Shown one piece after another: positions 2,022 through 33,705 of a stretch of 33,705 nucleotides of DNA. Source of the stretch: an uncultured Clostridia bacterium (lineage in GTDB: Bacteria > Bacillota > Clostridia > TANB77 > CAG-508); the NCBI GenBank assembly GCA_947627555.1, contig CANQWL010000002.1, forward strand, positions 1 through 33,705, read 5' to 3'. Made by a program: the position numbers and the translations under genes. The stretch's first letter is position 1. Each line of letters begins with the position of its first letter. The notes below the pieces were generated by a model. It was not told the origin of the DNA. It saw only the letters and a list, made by a program, of their open reading frames with translations, and did no database searches.

Positions 2022-2543
2022 ATGGAAACATTAGAAAAACTAATTAATTATAATGAAGAAATAAAAAATTTTCACCTTCCAAGATGGCGAGAACTTCCAA
2101 ATATCGATTTATATTTAGATCAAGTTGTATCTCTATTAGACAATTATTTATCTAGCTATTTAAAGGAAGATAGTGAAAAAGATGGTAAATTTATAACAAA
2201 AACTATGATTAATAACTATGTAAAACATGGCGTTGTAAAGCCACCTATAAATAAAAAATATAGTAAAGAACACATTGCTTATTTATTTGTTGTATTTACC
2301 TTAAAACAAGTTTATAGTATAGAAGATATAAAAAAATTAATTGAACTTGCAATAAAAACTTCTCCTACAAAACAAGCTTATAATTTATTTTGTAATGAAA
2401 TAGAAAAAGCAATTAGATTAACTTTTATTGGAGAGAATTATATTGATCATAATAAACTTACTCAGGAACAATATCTTTTAAGAAATGTTGTTCAATCTTT
2501 TGCAAATAGGCTTTATGTTAAAAAAGTTTTTTTAAAAAATTAA
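2022..2543 (+). CDS. DUF1836 domain-containing protein
   Basis: The track ORF is 1923-2543. I prefer the ATG at 2022 (METLEKL...), which is preceded by an AGAGGT RBS. The pattern LPRWRELPNIDLYLDQV...TKTMINNYVKHGVVKPPINKKYSKEHIAYL is typical of the DUF1836 family, judged from memory. Confidence 0.7.
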   Translation: METLEKLINYNEEIKNFHLPRWRELPNIDLYLDQVVSLLDNYLSSYLKEDSEKDGKFITKTMINNYVKHGVVKPPINKKYSKEHIAYLFVVFTLKQVYSIEDIKKLIELAIKTSPTKQAYNLFCNEIEKAIRLTFIGENYIDHNKLTQEQYLLRNVVQSFANRLYVKKVFLKN

Positions 2544-2580
2544 ATTTTTTCTGTCTAGTATTTTTAATATAACTAAAAAA

Positions 2581-2613
2581 CTTAAGGACGCAAATTTATT
2601 ATACGCCCTTAAG
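2581..2613. terminator. Bidirectional terminator hairpin between convergent genes
   Basis: CTTAAGGACG ... CGCCCTTAAG stem, flanked by an A run upstream and a T-rich stretch downstream. Confidence 0.5.
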
Positions 2614-2614
2614 T

Positions 2615-3148
2615 TTAATTTTCTACTTGTATTTGTTCTGTTTCTTGTTTAATTTCATATTGTTCTTTATTTTCATCTTGTAATTTATGCAATTTTAACA
2701 TTACAAATCTTGCAATTGGTTGTGCAATAAAACACTCTACAAAAAATGCAATTGCAAAATTTCTTGGCCATTTATAAAAAAACATATGAATTGGCTCCAT
2801 ACTAATATGTCTTGTTCCAATCCAAGTTCCAATAACAGTTAATAAAATTGACATCAAGAATACTGTACAAAGAACATTAATAATTATATGTGATTTAAAA
2901 CTATCTTTTTCATCTACTATTTGTGCAGTTAGCCATTCTGCAGGTTTATATGTAATAAGAACAACTGCTATTACACTTAACCAAATAAAAGGAATTACTT
3001 TAAGTACATCAGCCCACACATATAGATGAAATCCTACTTCAAAGCATGTAATTAGTGGTGCTAGTATATTGACAGATATTATTGAAATTATTGCCATAAA
3101 TAAAGTAAATTCTTTTTTATTTCTTGGTAATTTCATAAAAAACTCCAT
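2615..3148 (-). CDS. DUF2798-like integral membrane protein
   Basis: 177 aa with several hydrophobic helices and a KLPRNKKE N-terminus typical of DUF2798, judged from memory. The true start may be the second ATG at 3136, which has GGAG 6 nt upstream. Confidence 0.55.
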   Translation of the reverse strand: MEFFMKLPRNKKEFTLFMAIISIISVNILAPLITCFEVGFHLYVWADVLKVIPFIWLSVIAVVLITYKPAEWLTAQIVDEKDSFKSHIIINVLCTVFLMSILLTVIGTWIGTRHISMEPIHMFFYKWPRNFAIAFFVECFIAQPIARFVMLKLHKLQDENKEQYEIKQETEQIQVEN

Positions 3149-3203
3149 TTTTTCTCTTCTTCCTCCTTTCTTCTACTTTAATGGTCTATTTTTTTACAAA
3201 ATA

Positions 3204-3230
3204 AGCGTGAGACCTGTTAGATCTCACGCT
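3204..3230 (-). promoter_or_regulatory. Terminator-like hairpin in the 5' leader of the DUF2798 gene
   Basis: 9-bp GC-containing stem AGCGTGAGA/TCTCACGCT. On the minus strand it is followed by TTATTTTGT. It lies between the predicted promoter (3261-3289) and the RBS, and is enclosed by an outer TAATGGT/ACCATTA pairing. Confidence 0.4.
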
Positions 3231-3260
3231 GAACCATTATACGCGTTTTTCAACGTACCT

Positions 3261-3289
3261 ATTATATATTATCTTTTAATTTTTTTCAA
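3261..3289 (-). promoter_or_regulatory. Sigma-A type promoter, TTGAAA-17 nt-TATAAT
   Basis: Minus strand reads cTTGAAAaaaattaaaagataataTATAATagg. The spacing was counted directly. Confidence 0.55.
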
Positions 3290-3406
3290 GAAATAAATCA
3301 AAATTTTTTTATTTTTATTTTTAAAGTTTAATATATTTTTATGCATTGATAATAAATAAAATTTTAAAAAATATTATTATATAAATTTAAATTAATTAAC
3401 TTATGA

Positions 3407-3448
3407 GATGACGAACAAAGTAAAATAATTTTACTTTATTCGTCCATC
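3407..3448 (-). terminator. Long imperfect hairpin downstream of the VanW gene
   Basis: GATGACGAACAAAGTAAAA ... TTTTACTTTATTCGTCCATC, with one bulge and one mismatch. The T tract is poor, so function is uncertain. Confidence 0.3.
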
Positions 3449-3501
3449 TTTAAGTTAATTTTTTTAAAAAGCATTATACTGCCTTTTTGATTGGCATCAC
3501 A

Positions 3502-4224
3502 TCATTTTGGTATACACCTTACTGTCTTTTCTTTTTTTATTATTTTAAAAATCTTTACGGTAACAGTTTGGCCTTTTGCAATTACTTTTATCCGGATTGG
3601 AACTTTTTTTGTGTTTATTACTTTTAAGTCCTTACCTCCATCATATGTAACTGTAGCTTCATAGTCATTTGGACCTAGATAACCAACAGCTTCAGAATGA
3701 GGCATTGCAACTGTTTTTAATCCTGCTTCTATTGCTGCACTATTAATAGTACTAGCAACTTGGCAAACTCCTCCGCCTAATCCATCAACAAAGTTCCCTT
3801 TTGCTATTACTGTTGCACTCTTAAACCCTTTTTCTGCTGTAGTTTCTCCTACTACCTCTAACCATGAAAAGGTTTCATTTGGCTGCAATTTATAACCTTT
3901 TCCATCTTCTCCATTAATTATATCTCCTGCCACTTTCATATTGACATTGCGATTTCCATAAGAGTGATAATTAGTTATACTATGCTTGCTAATGAGTTTT
4001 TTCTTGTAAGTTACTACCTTTTTGTACTGATATACAATTGGTGTGCTTGTTGGCTCCGGCGCTGGTGTTTCAGTTACAATTGCATTTTCTTGCTCTGCTA
4101 TATTTGGATTGTTAATATTATTTGTCTTTTTTTCGATAATTAAACCAATAAAAAAGGCAAATGTACACAATATTATACCTCCTACTATGCAGATTCTAAA
4201 AATCCGTTGTGTTTTCTTTTCCAT
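3502..4224 (-). CDS. VanW family protein (N-terminal membrane anchor)
   Basis: 240 aa with an N-terminal TM helix. VanW-domain pattern FSWLEVVG...GGGVCQVASTINSAAIEAGL. AAGGAGG RBS. Confidence 0.8.
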   Translation of the reverse strand: MEKKTQRIFRICIVGGIILCTFAFFIGLIIEKKTNNINNPNIAEQENAIVTETPAPEPTSTPIVYQYKKVVTYKKKLISKHSITNYHSYGNRNVNMKVAGDIINGEDGKGYKLQPNETFSWLEVVGETTAEKGFKSATVIAKGNFVDGLGGGVCQVASTINSAAIEAGLKTVAMPHSEAVGYLGPNDYEATVTYDGGKDLKVINTKKVPIRIKVIAKGQTVTVKIFKIIKKEKTVRCIPK

Positions 4225-4411
4225 AATGTGATATCCTCCTTTAGATATATATATTTTATGTTACCGATATATTTTATCACTTTTTTCCTTTTTTGTAAAC
4301 ACTTCTCTTAAAAGATTTTAGTAAAAAAATTCCTTATATCACAATCTATTGCTACAATTTATTTACATTTTATTTGTTTTTATGTTGACACGTATTAGTA
4401 ACTTATAGATA

Positions 4412-6247
4412 TTATTCTTCTACTTCTTCAAACTGACTATTATATAAATCTGCATAGAATCCATTTTGTGCAAGTAACTCATCATGAGTACCTTGTTCAA
4501 CAATATCTCCATGATTTATAACTAAAATCAAATCTGCATTTTTTATAGTAGATAGTCTATGAGCAATTATAAAACTTGTTCTACCTTTCATTAAATTATC
4601 CATTGCTTTTTGAATTCTAATTTCAGTTCTTGTATCTATTGAGCTTGTTGCTTCATCTAAAATTAATATTTTAGGATTTGTTAAAATAACTCTTGCAATT
4701 GTAAGCAATTGCTTTTGTCCTGCTGAAACATTACTTGATTCTTCATTTAATATTGAATTATATCCCTTTGGTAAAGTTTTGATAAAATGATGAACATGAG
4801 CAGCTTTCGCAGCTTGAATTATTTCATCATCTGATGCATCTTCTTTTCCATATTTAATATTGTCTTTTACAGTTCCTCCAAATAACCATGTATCTTGAAG
4901 AACCATTCCAAACATTTTGCGTAGTTCTCCTCTTTTAAAGTCTTTGATATTGTGTCCGTCTATTAATATTTCTCCAGAATTTACATCATAAAATCTCATT
5001 AATAATTTAACCATTGTTGTTTTACCAGCCCCTGTTGGTCCAACAATTGCAATTTTCTGACCTTGTTTTACATCTGCACTAAAGTCATTTATAACTACTT
5101 TTTCTGGATTATATCCAAATTGTACATTTTTAAATTGTACATTTCCTTTTAATTCTGATGTATTAATTTCACCTTTTGATGTTTCTTGTTCTTCTGGTTC
5201 TTCTAAAAATTCAAATATTCTTTCTGCTGCTGCTATCATTGCTTGTAACATTCCTGATATTTGGGCTATTTGTGATATTGGCTGAGTAAATTGTTTGTTG
5301 TATTGAATAAAACTTTGAATATTACCAACTGTAATAGTTCCTTTAATTGCTAAATATCCTCCTGCTACTGCTATTCCAGCATAAGATATATTTCCTATAA
5401 AATTCATTAATGGATGCATTAATCCTGATAAAAACTGTGATTTCCATCCTGAACGATATAATTCATCATTTGCTTTTTTAAATTCTTTCTCCGCTTTCTT
5501 TTCTCCATTAAATACTTTTACAACATTTAATCCACTATATATTTCTTCTACTTGACCATTAACATGACCCAAGTAGTCTTGTTGCTTTTTAAAATACTTT
5601 TGAGATTTTCCTACTATTTGCTTCACAATTAATACTGAAATTGGCAATACGATTAGCGAAATAAGTGTCATTTGCCAGCTAATTGAAAGCATCATAACTA
5701 AAATTCCTATCAATGTGCAAATTGCTGTAATAATTTGAGTTATACTTTGATTTAAGTTCATACTTAAAGTATCAATATCATTTGTAATAATAGATAATAC
5801 TTCTCCATTAGTTTTTCTGTCAAAATAATTCATTGGTAGCTTATTAATCTTTGTTGCAATATCATTTCTTAATTTATAGGTTATTTTTTGTGACACACTT
5901 GTCATTGTAAAACCTTGTATAAAGGAGAATAATGCACTTACAATATATAAACCAAGTAAAGTCAATAAAATTTGTGCAATTTTTCCAAAATCTATTCCAT
6001 CTCCACCAGATAGTTTGCTTATTAGACCATTAAAAATTTCTGTTGTTGCATTTCCAAGTATTTTTGGTCCTACAATTGTAAATATTGTACTTCCAATTGC
6101 AAATATAAATACGATAATTAGTGCAACTTTATATTTTGATAAATAATTATTAATTAGCTTTTTTGTTGTTCCTTTAAAGTTTTTTGCTTTTTCAATTTGT
6201 GGTTTTGCACCTGGTCCTCGTCTTGGTCCACCCATTGGTCCTGGCAT
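4412..6247 (-). CDS. ABC exporter, fused permease/ATPase subunit (consensus ATP site)
   Basis: 611 aa. Six-helix TMD followed by an NBD with Walker A GPTGAGKTT, signature VSAGQKQLL, Walker B ILILDEATS and H-loop IIAHR. The RBS lies 7 nt upstream. Its start is 3 nt after the upstream gene's stop. Confidence 0.95.
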   Translation of the reverse strand: MPGPMGGPRRGPGAKPQIEKAKNFKGTTKKLINNYLSKYKVALIIVFIFAIGSTIFTIVGPKILGNATTEIFNGLISKLSGGDGIDFGKIAQILLTLLGLYIVSALFSFIQGFTMTSVSQKITYKLRNDIATKINKLPMNYFDRKTNGEVLSIITNDIDTLSMNLNQSITQIITAICTLIGILVMMLSISWQMTLISLIVLPISVLIVKQIVGKSQKYFKKQQDYLGHVNGQVEEIYSGLNVVKVFNGEKKAEKEFKKANDELYRSGWKSQFLSGLMHPLMNFIGNISYAGIAVAGGYLAIKGTITVGNIQSFIQYNKQFTQPISQIAQISGMLQAMIAAAERIFEFLEEPEEQETSKGEINTSELKGNVQFKNVQFGYNPEKVVINDFSADVKQGQKIAIVGPTGAGKTTMVKLLMRFYDVNSGEILIDGHNIKDFKRGELRKMFGMVLQDTWLFGGTVKDNIKYGKEDASDDEIIQAAKAAHVHHFIKTLPKGYNSILNEESSNVSAGQKQLLTIARVILTNPKILILDEATSSIDTRTEIRIQKAMDNLMKGRTSFIIAHRLSTIKNADLILVINHGDIVEQGTHDELLAQNGFYADLYNSQFEEVEE

Positions 6248-6249
6248 AC

Positions 6250-8586
6250 TTATTCCTCCTTTCCTTCTTTATTGCTTTCTTTATTTTGTTTTTCTTCACG
6301 TTCATTATTATTTTCTATCATCTTATTGTTATTACCATTAAGTTCTTCTTCTGATAATTGAGATAAAGCAATTTGTCTGTATGTTTCATTATCTCTCATT
6401 AATTCTTCATGAGTACCAGTTCCAACTACTTTTCCTTCATCTAATACAATAATTTGATTTGCATTTAAAATGGTACTAATTCTTTGTGCTACTATAATTA
6501 CTGTTTTATTTTCTGTTTTTTGTGCTAATGCTTCTCTTAGTGCTGAATCTGTTTTAAAATCTAGTGCTGAAAAACTGTCATCAAATACAAATATTTCTGG
6601 ATCTTTCGCAATTGCTCTAGCTATAGATAGACGTTGTTTTTGTCCCCCACTAACATTGCTTCCTCCTTGCGAAATATCATCTTTATATTTTTTCTCTTTT
6701 GTTTCTATAAATTCTACTGCTTGTGCTATTTCTGCTGCCTGTATCATTTGTTCATCAGACATTTCTTCATCTGCATATTTTATGTTTGATTCTATTGTTC
6801 CTGAAAATAAAATTCCTTTTTGTGGTACAAATCCAATAATGTCTCTTAATTTTTTAATTGAAACATCTTTGATATTTACACCATCAATTAAAAGTTCTCC
6901 ACCTGTTACATCATAAAATCTTGGTAATAGATTAACAATAGTTGATTTTCCACTTCCTGTACTTCCTATAATTGCCGTAGTTTCTCCTGGTCTTGCTGTA
7001 AAATTAATATCTTCTAAAATTTCAGTATCTGCATCTGGATATCTAAAACATACATTTTTAAATTCTACTAATCCTTTTTTATTTGTATCAAATTCTTTTG
7101 TTTTTCTTTTTTCTTTTATTGATGGTTCTGTTTCAATTACATCCATTATACGATTTGCTGAAACAGATGCTCTTGGAAGCATAATTGATATCATAGATAT
7201 CATTAAGAATGAAATTAGAATTTGCATCATATATTGGATAAATGCCATCATATTTCCTACTTGTATAATTCCTTGGTCTACTCCATGTCCTCCTACCCAG
7301 ATAATCAAAATCATCATTGAATTCATTACAAACATAAGCATTGGCATCATCATTGACATTGCTCTATTTACAAATATATTTGTTTTCATTAAATCTTGAT
7401 TTGCTTCGTCAAATCTTCCTTCTTCTCTCTTTTCTGTATTAAATGCACGAATAACTGGTAAACCTGTTAAAATTTCTCTTGATACTAAATTTAATTTGTC
7501 TGTTAAGTCTTGTAATTTCTTGAATTTAGGCATTGCAATAAAGAATAGTGTTCCTACAATAAATAGAATTGCAAGTATAGCTACTCCTACAATCCATGCC
7601 ATTGAATTATCACTATTTGTTAAAACTTTAATAAATCCGCCTATTCCCATTATTGGTGCGTATACTACTACTCTAAATAGCATTGTAATTAATTGTTGAA
7701 TTTGTTGTATATCATTGGTGCTACGCGTAATTAATGATGCAGTTGAAAATTCACTTAATTCTTTATTAGAAAAACTTAATACTTTTTTAAATACTTTATT
7801 ACGAAGAGTTTGACCAAGTTTTGCTGCAACTCTAGATGAGAACAATATAATTAATACGGCAGATACCATACTTATTAATGCTACTCCTAACATTTGAATT
7901 CCTGAAAGTAGTATGTAATTATTTTGAAGTTTATCTGTATCTACACCTAGATCTTTATACATTTGCTTTATTGTTGCTACTGCTGCTTGCTCTTTAATAG
8001 AATCTGACATTTCATCTATTTGCTTTGTATATTGTTCTAATAAAGCTTTTCTTTGTTCTTGTGGCATGTTTTTTATTATATCTACTAAATTCTGTGAAAT
8101 AATCATTTGTCTTTGAGCCTCTGGCATATTATTTGCCATTTGCTCTTTTATTTGATTTGCCATTTCTTCATTTTTTATTGTATTTAGTTCCATTAATGGA
8201 GTAGAAATTATCTTTGTAAGCTCTTGTTCTGTTTCCTCTCCTATTTCATTTAATACATAAATACTATTAGGCTCTATCTTATAATTTTTACTGAAATATT
8301 GTTCTATTATTTTACTTTGTTCTTCACTTAAATTACTTCCTAAAAGTGTATAGTTATTCAAAATCTCTTTATTCTGATTTGTAAGAATAAGAATTAATTC
8401 CATATCTTCTTTTGAAATGAATTTTGGTACTAATGTTTCAATTCCTCCTGCTTGAATGCCAACATTTACTATTTTTGATGTATAATCTGGCAATGCTAAA
8501 TCTGCTGCTGCTTGCACACATAGCAATACTACAATAATAACTACTGACCAAAATGATTTTTTTAGATTTTTTAATACCTTTAACAT
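6250..8586 (-). CDS. ABC exporter, fused permease/ATPase subunit with a large TM1-TM2 insertion and a degenerate Walker B
   Basis: 778 aa. Walker A GSTGSGKST, signature VSGGQKQRLS, and Walker B IFVFDDSFS (Asp where the catalytic Glu is expected). There are roughly 165-190 extra residues between the first two TM helices and an acidic, Lys-rich C-terminal tail. Confidence 0.95.
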   Translation of the reverse strand: MLKVLKNLKKSFWSVVIIVVLLCVQAAADLALPDYTSKIVNVGIQAGGIETLVPKFISKEDMELILILTNQNKEILNNYTLLGSNLSEEQSKIIEQYFSKNYKIEPNSIYVLNEIGEETEQELTKIISTPLMELNTIKNEEMANQIKEQMANNMPEAQRQMIISQNLVDIIKNMPQEQRKALLEQYTKQIDEMSDSIKEQAAVATIKQMYKDLGVDTDKLQNNYILLSGIQMLGVALISMVSAVLIILFSSRVAAKLGQTLRNKVFKKVLSFSNKELSEFSTASLITRSTNDIQQIQQLITMLFRVVVYAPIMGIGGFIKVLTNSDNSMAWIVGVAILAILFIVGTLFFIAMPKFKKLQDLTDKLNLVSREILTGLPVIRAFNTEKREEGRFDEANQDLMKTNIFVNRAMSMMMPMLMFVMNSMMILIIWVGGHGVDQGIIQVGNMMAFIQYMMQILISFLMISMISIMLPRASVSANRIMDVIETEPSIKEKRKTKEFDTNKKGLVEFKNVCFRYPDADTEILEDINFTARPGETTAIIGSTGSGKSTIVNLLPRFYDVTGGELLIDGVNIKDVSIKKLRDIIGFVPQKGILFSGTIESNIKYADEEMSDEQMIQAAEIAQAVEFIETKEKKYKDDISQGGSNVSGGQKQRLSIARAIAKDPEIFVFDDSFSALDFKTDSALREALAQKTENKTVIIVAQRISTILNANQIIVLDEGKVVGTGTHEELMRDNETYRQIALSQLSEEELNGNNNKMIENNNEREEKQNKESNKEGKEE

Positions 8587-8673
8587 CTTTACTCCTCCCG
8601 GTACTAAGATACGCTCCTCTTTTCTTTAAAAAAGGAACGTATCTAAATCTCTCTAATTAAATAACACTGTATC

Positions 8674-8703
8674 ATTATATGTGACACAGTGTTATTTTGT
8701 CAA
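8674..8703 (-). promoter_or_regulatory. Sigma-A type promoter TTGACA-18 nt-TATAAT for the ABC operon, overlapped by the inverted repeat AACACTGT/ACAGTGTT (8663-8693)
   Basis: Minus strand reads cTTGACAaaataacactgtgtcacaTATAATgatacagtgtt. The 8-bp arms bracket the -10 box. Confidence 0.55.
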
Positions 8704-8742
8704 GCTAAGCTTTATGAAAATTGTGTGAATTTTTGTAGAATT

Positions 8743-9396
8743 TTACATCTTTCTAAATACTCCTGCAACTTTTCCTAGAATTTCGCAGTTTGGTACTATT
8801 ATTGGGTCCATTGTACTATTTTCTGGTTGAAGTCTAATATGGTCTGTTTCTTTGTAGAATGTTTTTACTGTTGCTTCTTCTCCAATTAACGCTACAACAA
8901 TTTCTCCATTATTTGCAGTATTTTGTTTCTTTACTAAAATATAGTCTCCATCTAAAATTCCTGCTTCTATCATGCTTTCGCCTCTAACAGTAAGCATAAA
9001 GCTTTCTGAATTTCCAACAAAGTCGATTGGAATTGGAAATGTGTCTGTTATGTTTTCTACTGCTAAAATTGGCTCTCCTGCTGTAATTCTGCCTACTATT
9101 GGAACTTCTACTAATTCTTTTTGTGTATAGAAATCTTTGCTTGATGTTGCTTTTGGTTCTCCTGTTCCTCCTTTTAGTAGTCTTAATGTTCTTCCTTTTT
9201 TATCTTGTTTTTTGATATATCCTTTTTCATCTAGTTTTGCTAAATATCCATGTACTGTTGCTGTTGAACTTAATCCTACTGCTTTTCCTATTTCTCTTAC
9301 TGATGGTGGATATCCTTGTGTCATAATTTGTTTTTCAATAAATTTTAGTATTGCTTTTTCTCTTTTATTTAACTCTGGTTTATTTTTTCTTGGCAT
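8743..9396 (-). CDS. lexA: LexA repressor (S24 peptidase)
   Basis: N-terminal winged-helix region ([23 protein letters not shown]), Ala-Gly cleavage site (RITAGEP), catalytic Ser (RGESM) and Lys (VKK). The track ORF starts at a GTG at 9405. The ATG at 9396 has GGAG 8 nt upstream. Confidence 0.95.
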
Positions 9397-9469
9397 ATTT
9401 ATCACTCCATTTCCATTATTTTGCTACATCATATCATACAAACAAAAAAATGTCAAACATATTTTTGAT

Positions 9470-10582
9470 TTATTTTGTTAATTTTATTCCAAATATTATT
9501 TCTATATTTTTTAAATCTTCTAATTTATAAGTATTATTATATTTTAATTCCAGTACAATGTTGTCATTCCAGTCAGACATTTGTGTTACAACTGGTTCAA
9601 AATTATAATAATATTTGTTATCCTTTTTTTCTTCTATTTTTCCTTCTTCGTTGTACCTATTAATTCTTAAAGAGTAATATTTATTTTTAAGTTTTACTCC
9701 TTCTTCTAATGTTATAGAAATTCCAGTTGAATATATTTTATATGATTTTATCATTAAGTATTGACTTTCATCATTTGTATATGGTATATAGTTTTTTGTT
9801 TTATTATCATATACTAGTAATATTTTAAAGTTTTCTAGTTCCTCATTTTGTACTTTATTTTGTTTTATTACATTATTTTCAAAAACATAATTAATTGATT
9901 CTACTGCATTTTCATATTTATCTACTCTATTTACTAAATCTGGCCTTAATTGTCCTTCTATAATAATATTTTGGTTTATTTCATTAACCTCTAATGTATC
10001 ATTTTGATATTTTTCAATTGTTAAAACTATGTCTTTTACATAAGAACTAGAATTGTCTATTAATTTATAATCGCAATTAAATTTATAATAATTGCCTTCT
10101 GCTTTTTCTAATATTTCATTTTGCCAATTCTCATCTTTATTTGTTTTTTCTATATCTATATTTTTATCAACATCTTTATAAATTACTTTTATTATGTCTT
10201 TTCGTGAATTTGCTATATTTAATATTTGTGTTACATCAAATTTATCAATATACATTTGTTTTGCCATTTTTTGAATATATCCATTAAAGCTATCAATTGT
10301 ATTCTTTTCTTCTTGTTTAGCTTTTTCTTTAGTGTAAAATATTTCTTTTAAAGAATAATTATCTATTATTTCAAGTACATTTTTTGTATATTGGGTTAAT
10401 ACTTGATATTGACACGCATATATAATAATAGTACAAATTATGGAAAACGTTATTGCAATTACTTGATTTCTATTATTTTTATATTTTTTAAGTATAGCAA
10501 TTCCAATAATTATTAGTGGTATAATAATTACTGCTGCTATATATACTAAATAAAACCCAAATGCTCTAAATATACTATTCAT
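9470..10582 (-). CDS. Hypothetical membrane-anchored protein
   Basis: 370 aa. Two N-terminal hydrophobic helices, then an Asn/Lys/Glu-rich soluble region. AAGGAG RBS. No domain recognised. Confidence 0.6.
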   Translation of the reverse strand: MNSIFRAFGFYLVYIAAVIIIPLIIIGIAILKKYKNNRNQVIAITFSIICTIIIYACQYQVLTQYTKNVLEIIDNYSLKEIFYTKEKAKQEEKNTIDSFNGYIQKMAKQMYIDKFDVTQILNIANSRKDIIKVIYKDVDKNIDIEKTNKDENWQNEILEKAEGNYYKFNCDYKLIDNSSSYVKDIVLTIEKYQNDTLEVNEINQNIIIEGQLRPDLVNRVDKYENAVESINYVFENNVIKQNKVQNEELENFKILLVYDNKTKNYIPYTNDESQYLMIKSYKIYSTGISITLEEGVKLKNKYYSLRINRYNEEGKIEEKKDNKYYYNFEPVVTQMSDWNDNIVLELKYNNTYKLEDLKNIEIIFGIKLTK

Positions 10583-10608
10583 ATATTACTCCTTTTCAAA
10601 AAAAACTA

Positions 10609-11862
10609 TTAATCTCCAAAAGCAGTTGCACCTATTACTTTTCCTAATCTTTTATCTATATATATACTTATTCCGTTAAGCATATCTGAGTCATTTCTTG
10701 TAAAACAATATACATCTACTGTTTTGTCTGATGTCCAATCTCTTTCTTCTAATTTTCTTGTAAAGAAATTATTCGGTGTTGCAGTTTGTTCTTTAACTTC
10801 TTGTGTTTTTTCATCATATTCTCCCACAACTCTTTTTGCTTCTTCAAATGCTTTTTCTGCTGTTTTAGTTGCATCTTGGAGTGATATCTTATTTGTTGAT
10901 TTGTTATATTCTTGTAAGAATTCATCAAAATTAGTTACAAATATGTTTGTGTCTAATTGCTCTACTTGTTTATCATATTCTACTTTAAAATTATCATTTG
11001 ATACGTTATTTGAAATTTCTACTAAATCTGTATTATATATACAATCTGTGTTTATAATTTTACTAGCTATAAGTAAATGACATGTATATTGATAATTGAT
11101 ATTTTCTATTTTGTTATAAAAATATTTTATATTTCCTACACTTACTTTAACATCTATTTTAGGTTCTAATGATATGGTCAATATTAAAACATTATCTTTA
11201 AATGTTTCATCTGTTATAGCTTCATCAAAAGCTAAATTAAACATTTCTTTATACAAATTATATTGTTCAATATCTTTAATTTGTACTTGATGAATTTTAT
11301 AATTTATTTCTTTCATTTCTTGTAAATATTTATATTCTACTGTATTTAATACATTTCTAGAAATCATTTCTTTATATTCTAGCATATATGATTTCTTATT
11401 TTCTGATATATTTTCTAATTCTTTTTTTATTTTATTTAAGTTTTTTATATTTTGAGCACATACTTTTCCACCTGTTTCTTCAAACTTTATCATTCCTGTA
11501 TTTTCTACTTTTTGTAATGGAATTAAATAATTTTTACTTGCTGTTTTATAGTCCAATTCTATAAATGATTTTTCTTTTATCTCTTCTATCTCTGAATCAT
11601 TTCTTGCTGATCCATTTGAAATATATTCTTTTATAGATTGTTCTAATAAGTTTTTAATTTTATTATATTCCTCTGTATCTTTTAAAAACTCAAAATATTG
11701 TCCTTCTTCGTTTTTATATACTATTCTATCTGGAGGTATAATATTTTTTTCAAAAACATTTATTTCTTCATTTAAATCAATTTTTTGTTTTAAAAATAAT
11801 CCAATAAATAATGACATTGCAATTAGTATTAATACTATAATTGTTACTATCTTTTTTTTCAT
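10609..11862 (-). CDS. Hypothetical protein with N-terminal signal/anchor
   Basis: 417 aa with a single N-terminal TM helix (IVTIIVLILIAMSLFIGLFL). The C-terminal ~70 aa look vaguely PepSY-like, which is a low-certainty impression. Confidence 0.6.
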   Translation of the reverse strand: MKKKIVTIIVLILIAMSLFIGLFLKQKIDLNEEINVFEKNIIPPDRIVYKNEEGQYFEFLKDTEEYNKIKNLLEQSIKEYISNGSARNDSEIEEIKEKSFIELDYKTASKNYLIPLQKVENTGMIKFEETGGKVCAQNIKNLNKIKKELENISENKKSYMLEYKEMISRNVLNTVEYKYLQEMKEINYKIHQVQIKDIEQYNLYKEMFNLAFDEAITDETFKDNVLILTISLEPKIDVKVSVGNIKYFYNKIENINYQYTCHLLIASKIINTDCIYNTDLVEISNNVSNDNFKVEYDKQVEQLDTNIFVTNFDEFLQEYNKSTNKISLQDATKTAEKAFEEAKRVVGEYDEKTQEVKEQTATPNNFFTRKLEERDWTSDKTVDVYCFTRNDSDMLNGISIYIDKRLGKVIGATAFGD

Positions 11863-29766: not shown

Positions 29767-30537
29767 TTATTTTAACACTCCTATCACTGTATCTATACAT
29801 ATCTTAAAATCATTTATTAAACTAAATTTTTTTATGTATTCTAAATTATATTTCATTTTCTTTGGTAATACTTCTTCTATATAGATATCATCAATATCTT
29901 TTATATTTTTCATACTTTCAGATGAATCTTGCATTTCTTCAACAGTTGTTATATTAGCATACATTCGCTCTCTATTTTTTAACATATATTTATTTAAAAT
30001 TTCGTTTTCATTTTTATATTTAATACTTGCATATGATGTTACTCCTGCTGGCATTAATAAAGTTGCTTTCATTTCATCTGTATACTTATCTACATATTTT
30101 TTTACTTCTGGTCTGGTTCCTACAAATGACATGTCTCCCTTTAGTATATTTATCAATTGCGGAAATTCATCTAATCTTAATTTCCTTATTATATTTCCAA
30201 CTCTAGTTATCCTAGAGTCTTCATTTAATGTTATTAAATTTCCTATCTTGTCTGCATCTTGTATCATAGTTCTAAATTTTAATATTTTAAAAATTCTATT
30301 ATATTGTGTTATTCGTGGTTGCTTATAAAACACTGGTCCTTTTGAGTCAATTTTTATAACTATAGCTAATATTATAAATATTGGCAAAAGTACTATTAAC
30401 AATATAATTGAAAAGAATATATCAAAAAATCGTTTTAGTAATAAACTTATTTTTCTTTTTTTCAATTCATCATAATATATACGTGTTTTTTCATTTTTAA
30501 TATTTTCTGGCAAGTCTTCCCATTTTTTTAAAATCAT
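29767..30537 (-). CDS. Initiating sugar-phosphate transferase (bacterial sugar transferase family, PglC/WbaP C-terminal-domain type)
   Basis: 256 aa with a single N-terminal reentrant/TM helix, FKILKFRTM and DEFPQLINILKGDMSFVGTRP. There is an extra ~40-aa acidic insertion before the C-terminal helix. Confidence 0.85.
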   Translation of the reverse strand: MILKKWEDLPENIKNEKTRIYYDELKKRKISLLLKRFFDIFFSIILLIVLLPIFIILAIVIKIDSKGPVFYKQPRITQYNRIFKILKFRTMIQDADKIGNLITLNEDSRITRVGNIIRKLRLDEFPQLINILKGDMSFVGTRPEVKKYVDKYTDEMKATLLMPAGVTSYASIKYKNENEILNKYMLKNRERMYANITTVEEMQDSSESMKNIKDIDDIYIEEVLPKKMKYNLEYIKKFSLINDFKICIDTVIGVLK

Positions 30538-30541
30538 ATTA

Positions 30542-31738
30542 TTACTCCAAAATTTTTTTAAAGTTTTTTATTATATATTCTATTTGTTCATCTGTTAATA
30601 AAGTATGCAGTGGTAATGTTATTTCATTTTTATACATTTCATAAGAATTTGGATAATCTTTTATATCAAATCCCAAATTTTTATATGCCATCATCATCGG
30701 TAATGGTTTATAATGTACATTTGTCGGTATTCCTAAGTTTGACATCTTCTTTATAATATTATTTCTATATTCTTCATCTTTACCTAGTAGTCTAACAAAA
30801 TATAAATGTCCGCTTGATTGAATTTTATCATTATAATGTTCTAATATTTGAATATTATTATCTTTTAGTCCTTCATTATACATTTTTATAATTTCTTTTC
30901 TTCTTTTTAATAGTTCATTATATCTACATAATTGTGCTAATCCAATTGATGCCATAATATCTGTCATATTGCATTTATAAGCTGGCATTTTTATGTCATA
31001 TTCCCAACCATTTGATTTAGTTTTTGATAAGGCATCTTTGTTTTGCCCATGCAAAGACCATAACATAAATTGCTCATATATTTCTTCATCCTGTATGCCT
31101 CTGATTTTTTTCCAAGTTACTGCTCCTCCTTCTGCTGTAGTTAAATTTTTGACTGCATGAAATGAAAAACTTGTAAAATCCGCAATATTACCAGTATTAA
31201 TACCTTTGTATTTAGCCCCAAAAGAATGTGCTCCATCTGCTATTATTACTATTTTTCCTATTGCTTTTTGTATTTTATTTTTAGCTATAAATTTTTCTTT
31301 ATTATTTTCTATTATCTCATATATTTTATCGTAATTCGCTGGTATTCCAGCTAAATCAACTGCTATAATAGCTTTGGTTTTATTTGTTATTTTTTCTTCT
31401 ATTCTTTCATAGTCCATTTCATAAGAATCTTTTGCTGTATCAAGAAATACAATTTTTGCTCCTACATGTTCAATTACACTTGCTGAAGCTGTATATGTAT
31501 AGGCTGGAACAATTACTTCATCATCTTTACCTATTTCTAATATTCTTAATATCATTTCTAATCCTGCGGTTGCAGAATTTAAGCAAACTGCTTTGGGTGT
31601 ACCACAAAATTCTGCTATTTGTCTTTCAAATAATTTTGTTTTTGGACCAGTTGTAATCCATCCTGATTTTAATGTATCTACCACTTCATCAATTTCTTTT
31701 TGCGTTATATCTGGTGGTGAAAATTTTATACATTCCAA
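30542..31738 (-). CDS. DegT/DnrJ/EryC1/StrS family PLP-dependent sugar aminotransferase
   Basis: 398 aa with SGWITTGPK, DGAHSFG and FSFHAVKNLTTAEGGA (PLP lysine). TTG start with AGAAGGA ~6 nt upstream. Confidence 0.9.
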   Translation of the reverse strand: MECIKFSPPDITQKEIDEVVDTLKSGWITTGPKTKLFERQIAEFCGTPKAVCLNSATAGLEMILRILEIGKDDEVIVPAYTYTASASVIEHVGAKIVFLDTAKDSYEMDYERIEEKITNKTKAIIAVDLAGIPANYDKIYEIIENNKEKFIAKNKIQKAIGKIVIIADGAHSFGAKYKGINTGNIADFTSFSFHAVKNLTTAEGGAVTWKKIRGIQDEEIYEQFMLWSLHGQNKDALSKTKSNGWEYDIKMPAYKCNMTDIMASIGLAQLCRYNELLKRRKEIIKMYNEGLKDNNIQILEHYNDKIQSSGHLYFVRLLGKDEEYRNNIIKKMSNLGIPTNVHYKPLPMMMAYKNLGFDIKDYPNSYEMYKNEITLPLHTLLTDEQIEYIIKNFKKILE

Positions 31739-31998
31739 ATCAATTCCTTCTTTCTTCTTTCCTTATAGTTAATGTCTTTTATACATTTTGTATTTCATTA
31801 ATTTTCATTATTACAACATAGAATCAATGAATATTTTGCTTCTTCATCTATACATTTCAGTATAGATTTGCGATATTCAACATAACTACATAAACATATA
31901 GTTTATGCACTTACCTATATGTTTTTATTTCACATAGGCTTTTTATTTATAAGTTTTACATTTAGAGTATTTATTTTGTTTTTTATAAAATTTTTAAT

Positions 31999-33252
31999 TT
32001 ATATTTTTTTGTCATATTTCCTTAAGCAACCCAATGCTATGTTCATTGCACAATTAAAGAAATAATCTGCTTGATGTCCATTTTTACAAATTGCCTTATC
32101 TTCTATTATTTTTTTATTTGTTTGTTTCCTTATTTTTCTTTCCATTACTTCTCCACATTTGTAGCATTTATCTGTTTTTTCTGTCATATCAACAAATGTT
32201 ACAAGAATATTTTCTTTAAATGCTTTATATCTAACGTAGTTTGTGATTCTATCTCTTAATGTTGCTGGATTAAATCTTTTTGAATATTTTAAAAAGATTT
32301 TGTCACTTCTAACATTTGATAGTGCTATTATTGTAACTTCATTTTCTACGCAAAAATCTACAATATTTCTGCTTATTACATGTGAAAAATGTGTGGTATA
32401 TTTTGATATCTTTTTCCAGTACTTTTTATTTGAACCTTTAACTTTATTTGAATTTTTAGCTATATGAGTATTTCTTTGTATCTTCCTCATAGCTTGGCTT
32501 GTTAAATATTTATATTCGTCTCCTCCTGAAATAAATAAAGTTTTCACAAATTTACCGTTAATATCTACTACTACACATGTTGCAATGTTGTTCTTTCCGG
32601 AAAATGCTACTCCACATACTCGTGTGTTCTTATCTTCCATTCTTTCTTTTATTGTTGTAAGATTTTCTACTGTACACCTTACTGGAATGTCTACTAATAC
32701 AAATTTCTTTTCTACCTTGATTTTTGGAGATAAGAGCTCTGCATTTTCAGGTATGTCCCATTTACTAAACTTTGCTTCATACCATTTCCAGTCTGTTCCG
32801 TTATAGAGTTTGAATTTAATTTTTCTATCTTCTAAGTATTGATACATTTCTTGATAATATGTTGTAGGAAAATTAAATTCTTTTGCTATACTTGGAAGTT
32901 TATTGTTTTTACTGCTGTCAACACTTTTTTCTAAGTTTGTAAAATATGCTTTTGCTTGTCCTATCGCTTGCATCATAGCTGACCTTCTGAACCTAGAGGG
33001 TACATCACATTTGAAATATTCTTTTGGAATTTCTCCGTATTTATTTATACATGTTATATTTTCTAGCTTTGTTCTACAGTTTCTAGAAGATTCTTTGAGA
33101 AATTCTTGATATTTAAATAGTAAATTATAATATTTTAGTACAAGTTCATTAAATTTTTGATTCGTTAATTTAAAGTATTCTAAATATTCTGTGTATAGCC
33201 TTCTTTTATAAATTACTGTGTAATACCCTTGTTTTTGCTCTTCTTCAGCCAT
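31999..33252 (-). CDS. TnpB-like (IS605 OrfB family) protein with substituted RuvC-I and RuvC-II catalytic positions
   Basis: 417 aa. TnpB hallmarks are HVISRNIVDFCVENEVTIIALSNV, YVRYKAFKENILVTFVDMTEKTDKCYKCG...CKNGHQADYFFNCAMNIA (zinc ribbon plus RuvC-III). The expected G-[IV]-D-x-G is GVAFSG and the expected I-x-x-E-D-L is IIALSNV. GGAGG RBS 6 nt upstream. There is no tnpA nearby. Confidence 0.8.
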   Translation of the reverse strand: MAEEEQKQGYYTVIYKRRLYTEYLEYFKLTNQKFNELVLKYYNLLFKYQEFLKESSRNCRTKLENITCINKYGEIPKEYFKCDVPSRFRRSAMMQAIGQAKAYFTNLEKSVDSSKNNKLPSIAKEFNFPTTYYQEMYQYLEDRKIKFKLYNGTDWKWYEAKFSKWDIPENAELLSPKIKVEKKFVLVDIPVRCTVENLTTIKERMEDKNTRVCGVAFSGKNNIATCVVVDINGKFVKTLFISGGDEYKYLTSQAMRKIQRNTHIAKNSNKVKGSNKKYWKKISKYTTHFSHVISRNIVDFCVENEVTIIALSNVRSDKIFLKYSKRFNPATLRDRITNYVRYKAFKENILVTFVDMTEKTDKCYKCGEVMERKIRKQTNKKIIEDKAICKNGHQADYFFNCAMNIALGCLRKYDKKI

Positions 33253-33273
33253 TTTATTCCTCCGAATTTACAC

Positions 33274-33296
33274 CATAAAGTCAAAGACTTTATGAT
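33274..33296. repeat. IR-L: 23-bp site CATAAAGTC-AAA-GACTTTATGAT, the perfect inverted copy of 33577-33599
   Basis: Read directly. 9-bp palindromic arms flank an asymmetric AAA core. It lies 21 nt upstream of the tnpB-like start codon. Confidence 0.9.
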
Positions 33297-33310
33297 TTTT
33301 AGGCATAATA

Positions 33311-33352
33311 AAAAAAGGCAATGAGCCTATTATTAGCTTTATTGCCTTTTTA
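33311..33352 (-). terminator. Rho-independent terminator (bidirectional shape, stronger on the minus strand) inside the IR-bracketed segment
   Basis: AAGGCAAT/ATTGCCTT stem extended by AGC/GCT. T6 follows on the minus strand and T4 on the plus strand. Confidence 0.65.
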
Positions 33353-33537
33353 GTATTACATATTTAGTTACTTATTTTTATAATTATAACAATATATTAA
33401 AATATTTTGTTTTAATTCAATGTTATGTTAGGTTTTATATGATATTTTTTTTGTTCTCATATCCTCTGTACCCCCCTTATATATCTGTTACTTCTATAAA
33501 TTTTTTAGAAGATAATCTAAAAAAATGTCAATAAGTA

Positions 33538-33566
33538 TTGAACTATTTATAAACTTGTGTTAAAAT
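33538..33566 (+). promoter_or_regulatory. Promoter P1: TTGAAC-17 nt-TAAAAT with a TGn extended -10, inside the IR-bracketed segment and pointing out through IR-R
   Basis: Plus strand reads TTGAACtatttataaacttgTGtTAAAAT. The spacing was counted directly. Confidence 0.55.
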
Positions 33567-33576
33567 AAAAATTGAT

Positions 33577-33599
33577 ATCATAAAGTCTTTGACTTTATG
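33577..33599. repeat. IR-R: 23-bp site ATCATAAAGTC-TTT-GACTTTATG, the perfect inverted copy of 33274-33296
   Basis: Read directly. Its reverse complement is identical to IR-L over 23 bp. Confidence 0.9.
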
Positions 33600-33617
33600 A
33601 TTTTTTATGTATATAAT
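33589..33617 (+). promoter_or_regulatory. Promoter P2: TTGACT-17 nt-TATAAT, with its -35 box formed by IR-R
   Basis: Plus strand reads TTGACTttatgattttttatgtaTATAAT. The spacing was counted directly. Confidence 0.55.
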
Positions 33618-33649
33618 CTTCCGGCTATGCCCAATGTCAACAACTTAAG

Positions 33650-33688
33650 AAAAAGAAGAAGTTTTTATACAAAATTTCTTCTTTTTTG
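33650..33688 (+). terminator. Rho-independent terminator about 65 nt downstream of P2
   Basis: AGAAGAAGTTTT ... AAAATTTCTTCT stem of ~12 bp including one G-U, followed by T5. Confidence 0.55.
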
Positions 33689-33705
33689 ATATAATTTTGG
33701 TAGGG

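Follow-up and report, generated by a model that had tools for sequence, protein, structure and literature searches.

The 260-nt spacer (positions 31739-31998) that separates a TnpB-like gene from a polysaccharide operon in a 33,705-nt stretch of DNA from an uncultured Clostridia bacterium (the whole stretch analysed here, hereafter the window) probably codes for a guide-type RNA cognate to the neighbouring TnpB-like protein, which is nuclease-dead. The pair would be TldR-like, with the tail of the RNA acting as a short fixed guide. The partnership between RNA and protein is well supported by comparative analysis of homologous loci, and guide function and repression are what we infer for the pair.

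The window belongs to a metagenome-assembled genome (MAG) of 1.29 Mb, 81% complete and 26% G+C, whose relatives are uncultured Clostridia of the rabbit gut; the stretch was found in four DNA runs, all from one rabbit-gut sample. On the minus strand, the TnpB-like gene is followed by the spacer and then by an operon in which the DegT gene comes first and Bac_transf and GT4 genes follow (Table 1). A consensus scan of the linker between stop codon and RNA found no promoter-like site on the minus strand, and in most relatives the first helix of the RNA, P1, begins 2-25 nt past the stop codon or overlaps it. The leader on the other side of the RNA differs between loci and displays no conservation. 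Upstream of the TnpB-like gene lies a palindromic repeat, ATCATAAAGTC nnn GACTTTATG, present in two copies in opposite orientation.

Table 1. Coordinates of features at the locus and of homologous genes with a broken frame. Positions refer to the window unless a locus is named.
Feature	Position	Strand	Basis or detail
Candidate invertible promoter: 23-bp inverted repeats around ~280 bp	33274..33601	.	Upstream of the TnpB-like gene
TnpB-like (TldR-type) nuclease-dead gene, 417 aa	31999..33252	(-)	Pfam, AF2/Foldseek, RuvC motifs
AT-rich linker, TnpB-like stop codon to RNA	31946..31998	(-)	Conservation absent
Structured RNA, omega-RNA-derived scaffold plus 3' tail	31812..31945	(-)	R1, fold z, covariation
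P1 hairpin	31914..31938	(-)	CCUAUGUG / CAUAUAGG; 31931-31938 pairs with 31914-31921
P2 hairpin, conserved CUAUAU loop	31887..31911	(-)	31901-31911 pairs with 31887-31895
Junction GUUGAAUAUCGC between P2 and P3, near-invariant	31870..31881	(-)	Columns invariant in 18/18 sequences
P4 hairpin, enclosed by P3	31846..31867	(-)	31860-31867 pairs with 31846-31853
P3 3' strand AUAUUCA, scaffold closure	31828..31834	(-)	Pairs long-range with 31873-31879
Single-stranded tail UUGAUUCUAUGUUG, 14 nt, candidate guide or seed	31814..31827	(-)	After P3
Locus-specific leader	31739..31813	(-)	RBS AAGAAGGAA at 31744-31752, TTG start at 31738
DegT-family aminotransferase, operon gene 1	30542..31738	(-)	Pfam E 4.6e-93
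Gene with broken frame, L013	13-1210		
Gene with broken frame, L023	89-1322		
Gene with broken frame, L024	3995-5219		
Gene with broken frame, L011	3995-5246		
Gene with broken frame, L022	3989-5222		

A conserved block in the spacer was first seen by aligning the DNA 3' of the gene from 14 genome loci. It corresponds to an RNA of 134 nt in total, made up of a scaffold of ~120 nt with four helices (P1, P2, and P3 around P4) and an unpaired tail of ~14 nt. A first-pass annotation of this DNA had described the spacer as structured, and folding bore this out: the 260-nt spacer has an MFE of -42.4 kcal/mol (z = -4.07) and the core at 31812-31945 an MFE of -33.7 kcal/mol (z = -5.22), values equalled by 0 of 200 shuffles in each case. 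For the core, the single-sequence MFE structure is identical to the comparative consensus. In an alignment of 18 sequences, 94.1% of cells are paired and 19 of the 34 pairs carry compensatory changes, a level matched by none of 500 shuffles. The 27-sequence alignment, which includes GC-rich relatives, has 95.1% of cells paired and compensatory changes in 23 of the 34 pairs, figures biased towards the structure because this alignment was fitted to the model. The 27 homologous loci derive from rabbit-gut MAGs, human-gut contigs and one complete-quality genome of another family. As a control, partners were slid by 1-3 columns, upon which only 31-53% of cells could pair in either alignment.

Compensatory changes are spread across the helices. 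They affect 5 of the 8 pairs of P1 in alignment A3 and 6 of 8 in alignment A6 (92-96% of cells paired), 7-8 of the 12 pairs of P2 (95% of cells paired) and 7 of the 8 pairs of P4 (A6). The long-range helix P3, whose 5' strand is the UGAAUAU of the junction (31873-31879), is paired in 99% of cells and has undergone A-U to G-C double changes in 2 sequences. On these comparative grounds, the covariation shows that selection acts on the base pairs of the scaffold.

The coordinates and sequences given for hairpins in the first-pass annotation were all exact on re-reading, and two of these hairpins belong to the conserved fold. The pairing of 31931-31938 (CCTATGTG) with 31914-31921 (CATATAGG), which had been offered as a mutually exclusive alternative, is P1, and the 8-bp hairpin ATCTATAC...GTATAGAT is P4; both are backed by covariation. 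The 9-bp hairpin that had been favoured instead (31915-31923, AACATATAG, with 31893-31901, CTATATGTT) conflicts with both P1 and P2, and we rejected it from the fold because its covariation does not rise above that of shuffles: of 500 shuffles, 256 do as well in paired percentage and 189 in covariation score. P2 and the long-range P3 did not figure in that annotation. The 9-bp hairpin joins the 3' arm of P1 to the complementary loop and 3' arm of P2 (31893-31923). It is pairable in 84% of relatives' cells and does not covary, and may represent a second conformer or simply follow from sequence conservation. Folding of the full 260 nt allows a further pairing that competes with P3, that of the P3 end and the tail with AAUUAAUGAA, ~25 nt downstream (31790-31835). 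The published guide of Efa1TldR is likewise a stem-loop in the binary complex.

The spacer had been proposed to encode the RNA of the tnpB-like protein, with the scaffold end located there. The first part of this proposal is strengthened by covariation, linkage and the shared P1/P2 module, which point to a minus-strand non-coding partner; the second needs amending, as the whole scaffold lies in the spacer, 54-61 nt past the stop codon and with no overlap with the ORF. The guide end falls where it was expected, upstream of the operon's first RBS. A consensus scan of the minus strand of 31739-31998 listed neither a sigma-70-like promoter nor an intrinsic terminator, in agreement with the reading by eye. 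The possibility that the spacer is simply the promoter and leader of the operon is disfavoured, given the lack of a promoter-like site and the 19-23 of 34 pairs with compensatory changes.

A covariance-model search had been suggested as a check. Permissive scanning of 30500-33705 with Rfam 15 returned chance-level matches only, and zero within 31739-31998. Because Rfam holds no matching model, we replaced this test with R1, a covariance model built from the homologous loci in this analysis. R1 matches 31812-31945 with 112.6 bits (E ~1e-16), its sole match in the 1.29-Mb genome, in which the spacer has no second copy.

The 417-aa protein matches Pfam OrfB_IS605 and Cas12f1-like_TNB, both below the gathering threshold, and the Pfam entry given for the family by the protein index is PF27142. 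Its AF2 model (pLDDT 84.6, from a 15-sequence alignment) was searched with Foldseek, and the best matches were Cas12f/TnpB ternary complexes over the full length, with E down to 5e-15. They include complexes of AsCas12f, OsCas12f, and the ISDra2 and ISFba1 TnpBs (E 5e-15 to 1e-9), at TM scores of ~0.37-0.6 (0.37-0.42 for ISDra2, 8exa). The family profile aligned with TnpB/Cas12f chains at E 1e-7, PDB 9n9c was among the fold matches, and the zinc-finger residues C-x2-C ... C-x3-H are conserved in the family alignment. The predicted structure has the bilobed WED-REC-RuvC-TNB fold of TnpB/Cas12f.

RuvC motif I reads CGVAFS, with Ala216 in place of Asp (family consensus CG[VI]AFS), and motif II reads IIALSN, with Glu absent; Asp396 of motif III is retained in the window protein and lost in GC-rich relatives. 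The D-E-D triad is incomplete, and at least two triad mutations are conserved across the clade, as in the definition of TldR proteins. A profile search of 1.84 billion representatives returned 109 clusters (50% identity) at E <= 1e-30, a count that also takes in close relatives whose catalytic triad is intact. Motifs were tabulated for 74 full-length members: all of the closer ones are dead, and more distant ones, among them P0047 and P0144, keep D..E..D. Protein-pattern scans of JGI metagenome and viral collections found no relatives, a phage collection gave no match and a plasmid collection gave remote TnpBs only. In its own genome the TnpB-like gene is single-copy, with no adjoining TnpA / Y1_Tnp gene and no transposon ends.

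RNA and gene travel together. The RNA adjoins the gene in 14 of 14 genome loci found with the protein, and in 12 of these 14 Bac_transf, DegT or Polysacc_synt_2 genes come after it on the same strand; G061, G063, G026 and G029 carry several loci each. Across 101 genomes of the genus, R1 matches were found in 4 only, each beside a copy of the gene (for G114, as judged through the matching locus L015). Human-gut metagenome contigs (48% G+C) yielded 13 full-length R1 matches plus two cut at contig ends. On the three such contigs inspected (L048, L065 and L076), the RNA lies 3' of a 400-424-aa homologue, 28% identical and with all three catalytic residues lost, and precedes genes of the DegT, Bac_transf or Polysacc_synt_2 type. 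In G502, a genome that is 100% complete and represents another family, the RNA lies directly 3' of all four paralogues, amid MucBP/Listeria-Bacteroides-repeat adhesins, serine and tyrosine recombinases and unrelated housekeeping genes; for two of the four RNAs, an intrinsic terminator ~17-20 nt past P3 marks the end. Locus L012 (2402-5138) is a tandem array in the order gene-RNA-gene-RNA, followed by a Bac_transf gene; the two genes encode 412 and 404 aa, the second being 38% identical to the family profile (hhalign), and each RNA copy has a different tail. The order in G029 is RNA-gene-operon. Judged by this linkage, which is seen down to 28% identity, the RNA belongs to the protein and not merely to the operon.

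In this arrangement, seen in L007 (G029:C8, 1459-2923) and L005, the RNA is upstream of the TnpB-like gene, with the tail reaching that gene's RBS; Bac_transf stands directly 3' of the gene with no RNA between, and is split into three ORFs. Five of the 14 genome loci combine an intact downstream RNA with a protein reading frame that is interrupted or shifted at its C-terminal end (Table 1). The break sites in L013, L023, L024, L022 and L011 contain no long homopolymer tracts, and the breaks could reflect MAG assembly error or real decay.

Among the relatives found, the one nearest to the dead family that is clearly mobile is a 2144-bp IS200/IS605-type element in G869, present in two identical copies (L202 / L213, G869:C1). 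Besides a Y1 TnpA it encodes a 444-aa TnpB whose triad is intact, and it has CTGACTTCAGTCAG hairpins at either end; by these features it is a bona fide IS200/IS605 transposon. Directly 3' of the tnpB stop codon in active relatives, R1 gives weak matches to P1 and P2, including the CUAUA loop, and in G869 this P1/P2-like region lies inside the transposon. The presence of the P1/P2 module just after tnpB in active relatives therefore links the RNA to omega-RNAs by descent. In its 3' half (P3/P4), the scaffold is unlike the RNA region of the active relatives. Most scaffolds end in ...UUCA; in the active relative, the element's right end reads ...GGTTCAA.

The 14-nt tail is our best candidate for a guide. 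Its identity within subgroups is 9-14 of 14, compared with only 2-10 of 14 for the next 14 nt, and its length is bounded to ~17-20 nt past P3 because the G502 terminators begin there. Published TldR guides measure 9-16 nt (10.1101/2023.11.30.569447). A genome search with the guide region, as the first-pass annotation had proposed, gave no second match to the tail beyond chance: 12-mer and mismatch-tolerant searches of the tail's own genome (81% complete) returned chance-level matches, the best non-self one (16 of 18 nt, contig C14) lying antisense inside a gene, with 0.52 such matches expected per shuffled guide. In three related MAGs, the subgroup-C tail found only its own sites, and within-locus and cross-locus searches gave self or chance-level matches only. 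The G502 candidate guides had no target in the G502 loci, a 9-mer that they share was not enriched in G502 (67 matches versus ~197 for the reversed control), and the human-gut tail had no target in its own contigs. No TAM could be derived from the searches of the window's genome, the three MAGs, the cross-locus set or G502. By eye, the tail also seemed able to base-pair with the last part of the ORF in subgroups B and D, and at 12 of 14 positions in the window's own ORF, but not in the close relatives L011 and L013 or in the human-gut RNAs.

In the mechanism that we favour, transcription would begin at the candidate invertible promoter that precedes the TnpB-like gene and proceed through the RNA into the polysaccharide operon, and host RNases would trim the RNA out of this transcript. 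The TnpB-like protein would bind the scaffold, and the tail, as a short fixed guide or seed, would direct the dead complex to a TAM-flanked DNA site, where the bound complex would block RNA polymerase in the manner of TldR complexes. The ON state of one phase-variable surface locus would in this way be coupled to repression of a competing locus or of its own read-through. In L022, L065, L198 and L199, the homologues have recombinase genes beside them and similar repeat pairs whose core is related (TCATAAAGT-like), which suggests that the family marks seemingly phase-variable surface loci. A role in regulatory coupling is likely because the family heads polysaccharide loci and tails adhesin loci with inverted repeats and recombinases. 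By analogy, one might extend this to RNA-guided mutual exclusion, in which the module of each inverton-controlled polysaccharide or adhesin locus, once ON, would silence competing loci or a shared regulator with a guide cut from the operon leader, as a TnpB-derived functional counterpart of Bacteroides UpxZ; this extension is speculative and, in our view, unlikely.

The RNA might instead act in cis, as the 5' leader of the operon, with the dead TnpB-like protein as its RNA-binding partner and no DNA targeting; control by processive antitermination, mRNA 5'-end protection or translation could be envisaged. We think this unlikely on balance, but it is the main alternative. Long polysaccharide operons often need leader RNAs, with the EAR element of Bacillus eps and the LoaP leader hairpins as examples, and in every polysaccharide-linked locus examined, in the window, rabbit MAGs and human-gut contigs alike, the RNA shares the transcription unit of the first biosynthesis gene and immediately precedes it. 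There, no terminator follows the RNA, and 30-110 nt (327 nt once) separate it from the first start codon of the operon; in G029, TnpB-like gene and operon together have the RNA as their 5' leader. This terminator-free position and the G029 order fit a cis leader equally well, no trans target was found for the tail, and several loci have an intact RNA despite a broken protein frame. A leader role sits poorly with G502, where a gene-RNA pair is found at the 3' end of adhesin genes with a terminator within ~20 nt: terminated before unrelated genes, this RNA leads nothing. Nor does it sit easily with L012, whose first RNA precedes another TnpB-like gene, or with a protein that keeps the whole TnpB/Cas12f DNA-binding architecture, including the zinc-finger TNB domain.

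A variant of the guide model places the target in cis, with the complex binding the DNA that encodes its own tail, a match perfect by construction, and throttling read-through into the operon. For each tail, the genomes examined contain one perfect match only, the site that encodes it. Pairing of the RNA-sense tail would be with the template strand, and Cas12-type roadblocks stop elongation when oriented in this way; the UUCA scaffold end, set against the GGTTCAA of the active relative's right end, can be read in the same direction. Such self-targeting is nevertheless very unlikely. The 3' terminus of the scaffold would also have to serve as a TAM, an arrangement avoided by transposon-borne TnpB systems; tail conservation within subgroups would go unexplained, since any sequence matches itself; and the G502 copies have nothing downstream to throttle. 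That the RNA is a non-functional relic, the decaying right-end/omega-RNA remnant of an old IS605 insertion, strikes us as highly improbable. A single-copy protein without TnpA or transposon ends and the frameshifts in some homologous genes would suit a relic, but compensatory changes are present in 19-23 of the 34 pairs, the RNA is kept beside 28%-identical proteins in AT-rich and GC-rich hosts alike, and the spacer contains no promoter-like site.

The guide-RNA reading places the pair close to known systems. Only three TldR-gRNA clades, associated with fliC, csrA and oppF, have been described (10.1101/2023.11.30.569447; 10.64898/2026.09.22.753285), and their authors consider the roles of most dead-TnpB lineages unknown. 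Like TldRs, the TnpB homologue of the window has lost at least two RuvC residues, lacks TnpA and transposon ends, and is stably associated with host (non-transposon) genes in varied contexts; an omega-RNA-like RNA lies beside the gene, with a short 3' segment at the guide position. As in the fliC clade, the associated loci encode surface antigens. The neighbours differ, being polysaccharide operons here (Bac_transf, DegT, Polysacc_synt_2) and MucBP adhesins in another family, with inverted repeats and recombinases near the gene-RNA pair; no fliC, csrA/flagellin or oppF gene is a neighbour, which sets the family apart from the published clades by gene neighbourhood. Here, in addition, gene and RNA precede the operon, the RNA doubles as its 5' leader (one genome has the RNA first), and the scaffold lies wholly outside the ORF. 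The TldR literature that we found contains no clade tied to polysaccharide loci or invertons, although these proteins may already be among the 506 catalogued dead TnpBs. The pair looks like a TldR-type RNA-protein pair from a clade for which we found no description in the literature, distinguished by its neighbourhood.

Omega-RNAs (reRNAs) of IS200/IS605 elements such as ISDra2 and the G869 element also lie 3' of the gene on the same strand and consist of a multi-helix scaffold followed by a guide, and the omega-RNA regions of the active relatives share the P1/P2 module and CUAUA loop with the window RNA. The window locus differs in having no right end, no TnpA and a single copy, and in its P3/P4 half. 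Since its protein is catalytically dead, the RuvC-dependent self-processing known for TnpB cannot make the 5' end of the RNA. The UpxY/UpxZ system of Bacteroides, from which the idea of cross-locus repression was taken, resembles this locus in that the regulator genes come first behind an invertible promoter, heading each polysaccharide locus, and in that one genome may hold several such loci; UpxY is NusG-like and UpxZ a small protein, neither with kinship in sequence or fold to the TnpB-derived protein, and the likeness is one of analogy only. The dead Cas12f of Bacteroidetes that works with sigma-E likewise represents an exapted dead TnpB/Cas12f fold with a guide RNA and glycan-related host genes, but it activates transcription and belongs to another lineage, and the window locus has neither an adjacent sigma factor gene nor a CRISPR array (PMC13472631).

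Taken together, these comparisons describe a sizeable lineage with a covarying RNA partner, located at capsule-like and adhesin loci of rabbit- and human-gut Clostridia. Phase variation of the bacterial surface has a central part in gut colonisation, immune evasion and phage resistance, and if the RNA is a guide, the lineage would join RNA-guided transcription control to this process. It would also offer a compact protein of ~400-417 aa and a scaffold of ~120 nt for programmable repression. Should the RNA prove to be a cis leader in a ribonucleoprotein, this would constitute a new use of the TnpB fold.

Two sets of loci merit mention for their repeats. In L022, the tail (5403-5422) has 10 nt, TTGTACTTTA, in common with both arms of the inverted repeat upstream of its own gene (3669 and 3944-3953), a sharing that is not significant on its own, and the P4 hairpin has the same GTACTTT/AAAGTAC half-sites. 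In L198 (G502:C5:160000-178000, 2059-11018), L197 and L199, the module stands directly after large adhesin genes, near Resolvase or Phage_integrase genes, and inverted-repeat pairs are located at 6598/6700 in L198 and 8801/8947 in L199.
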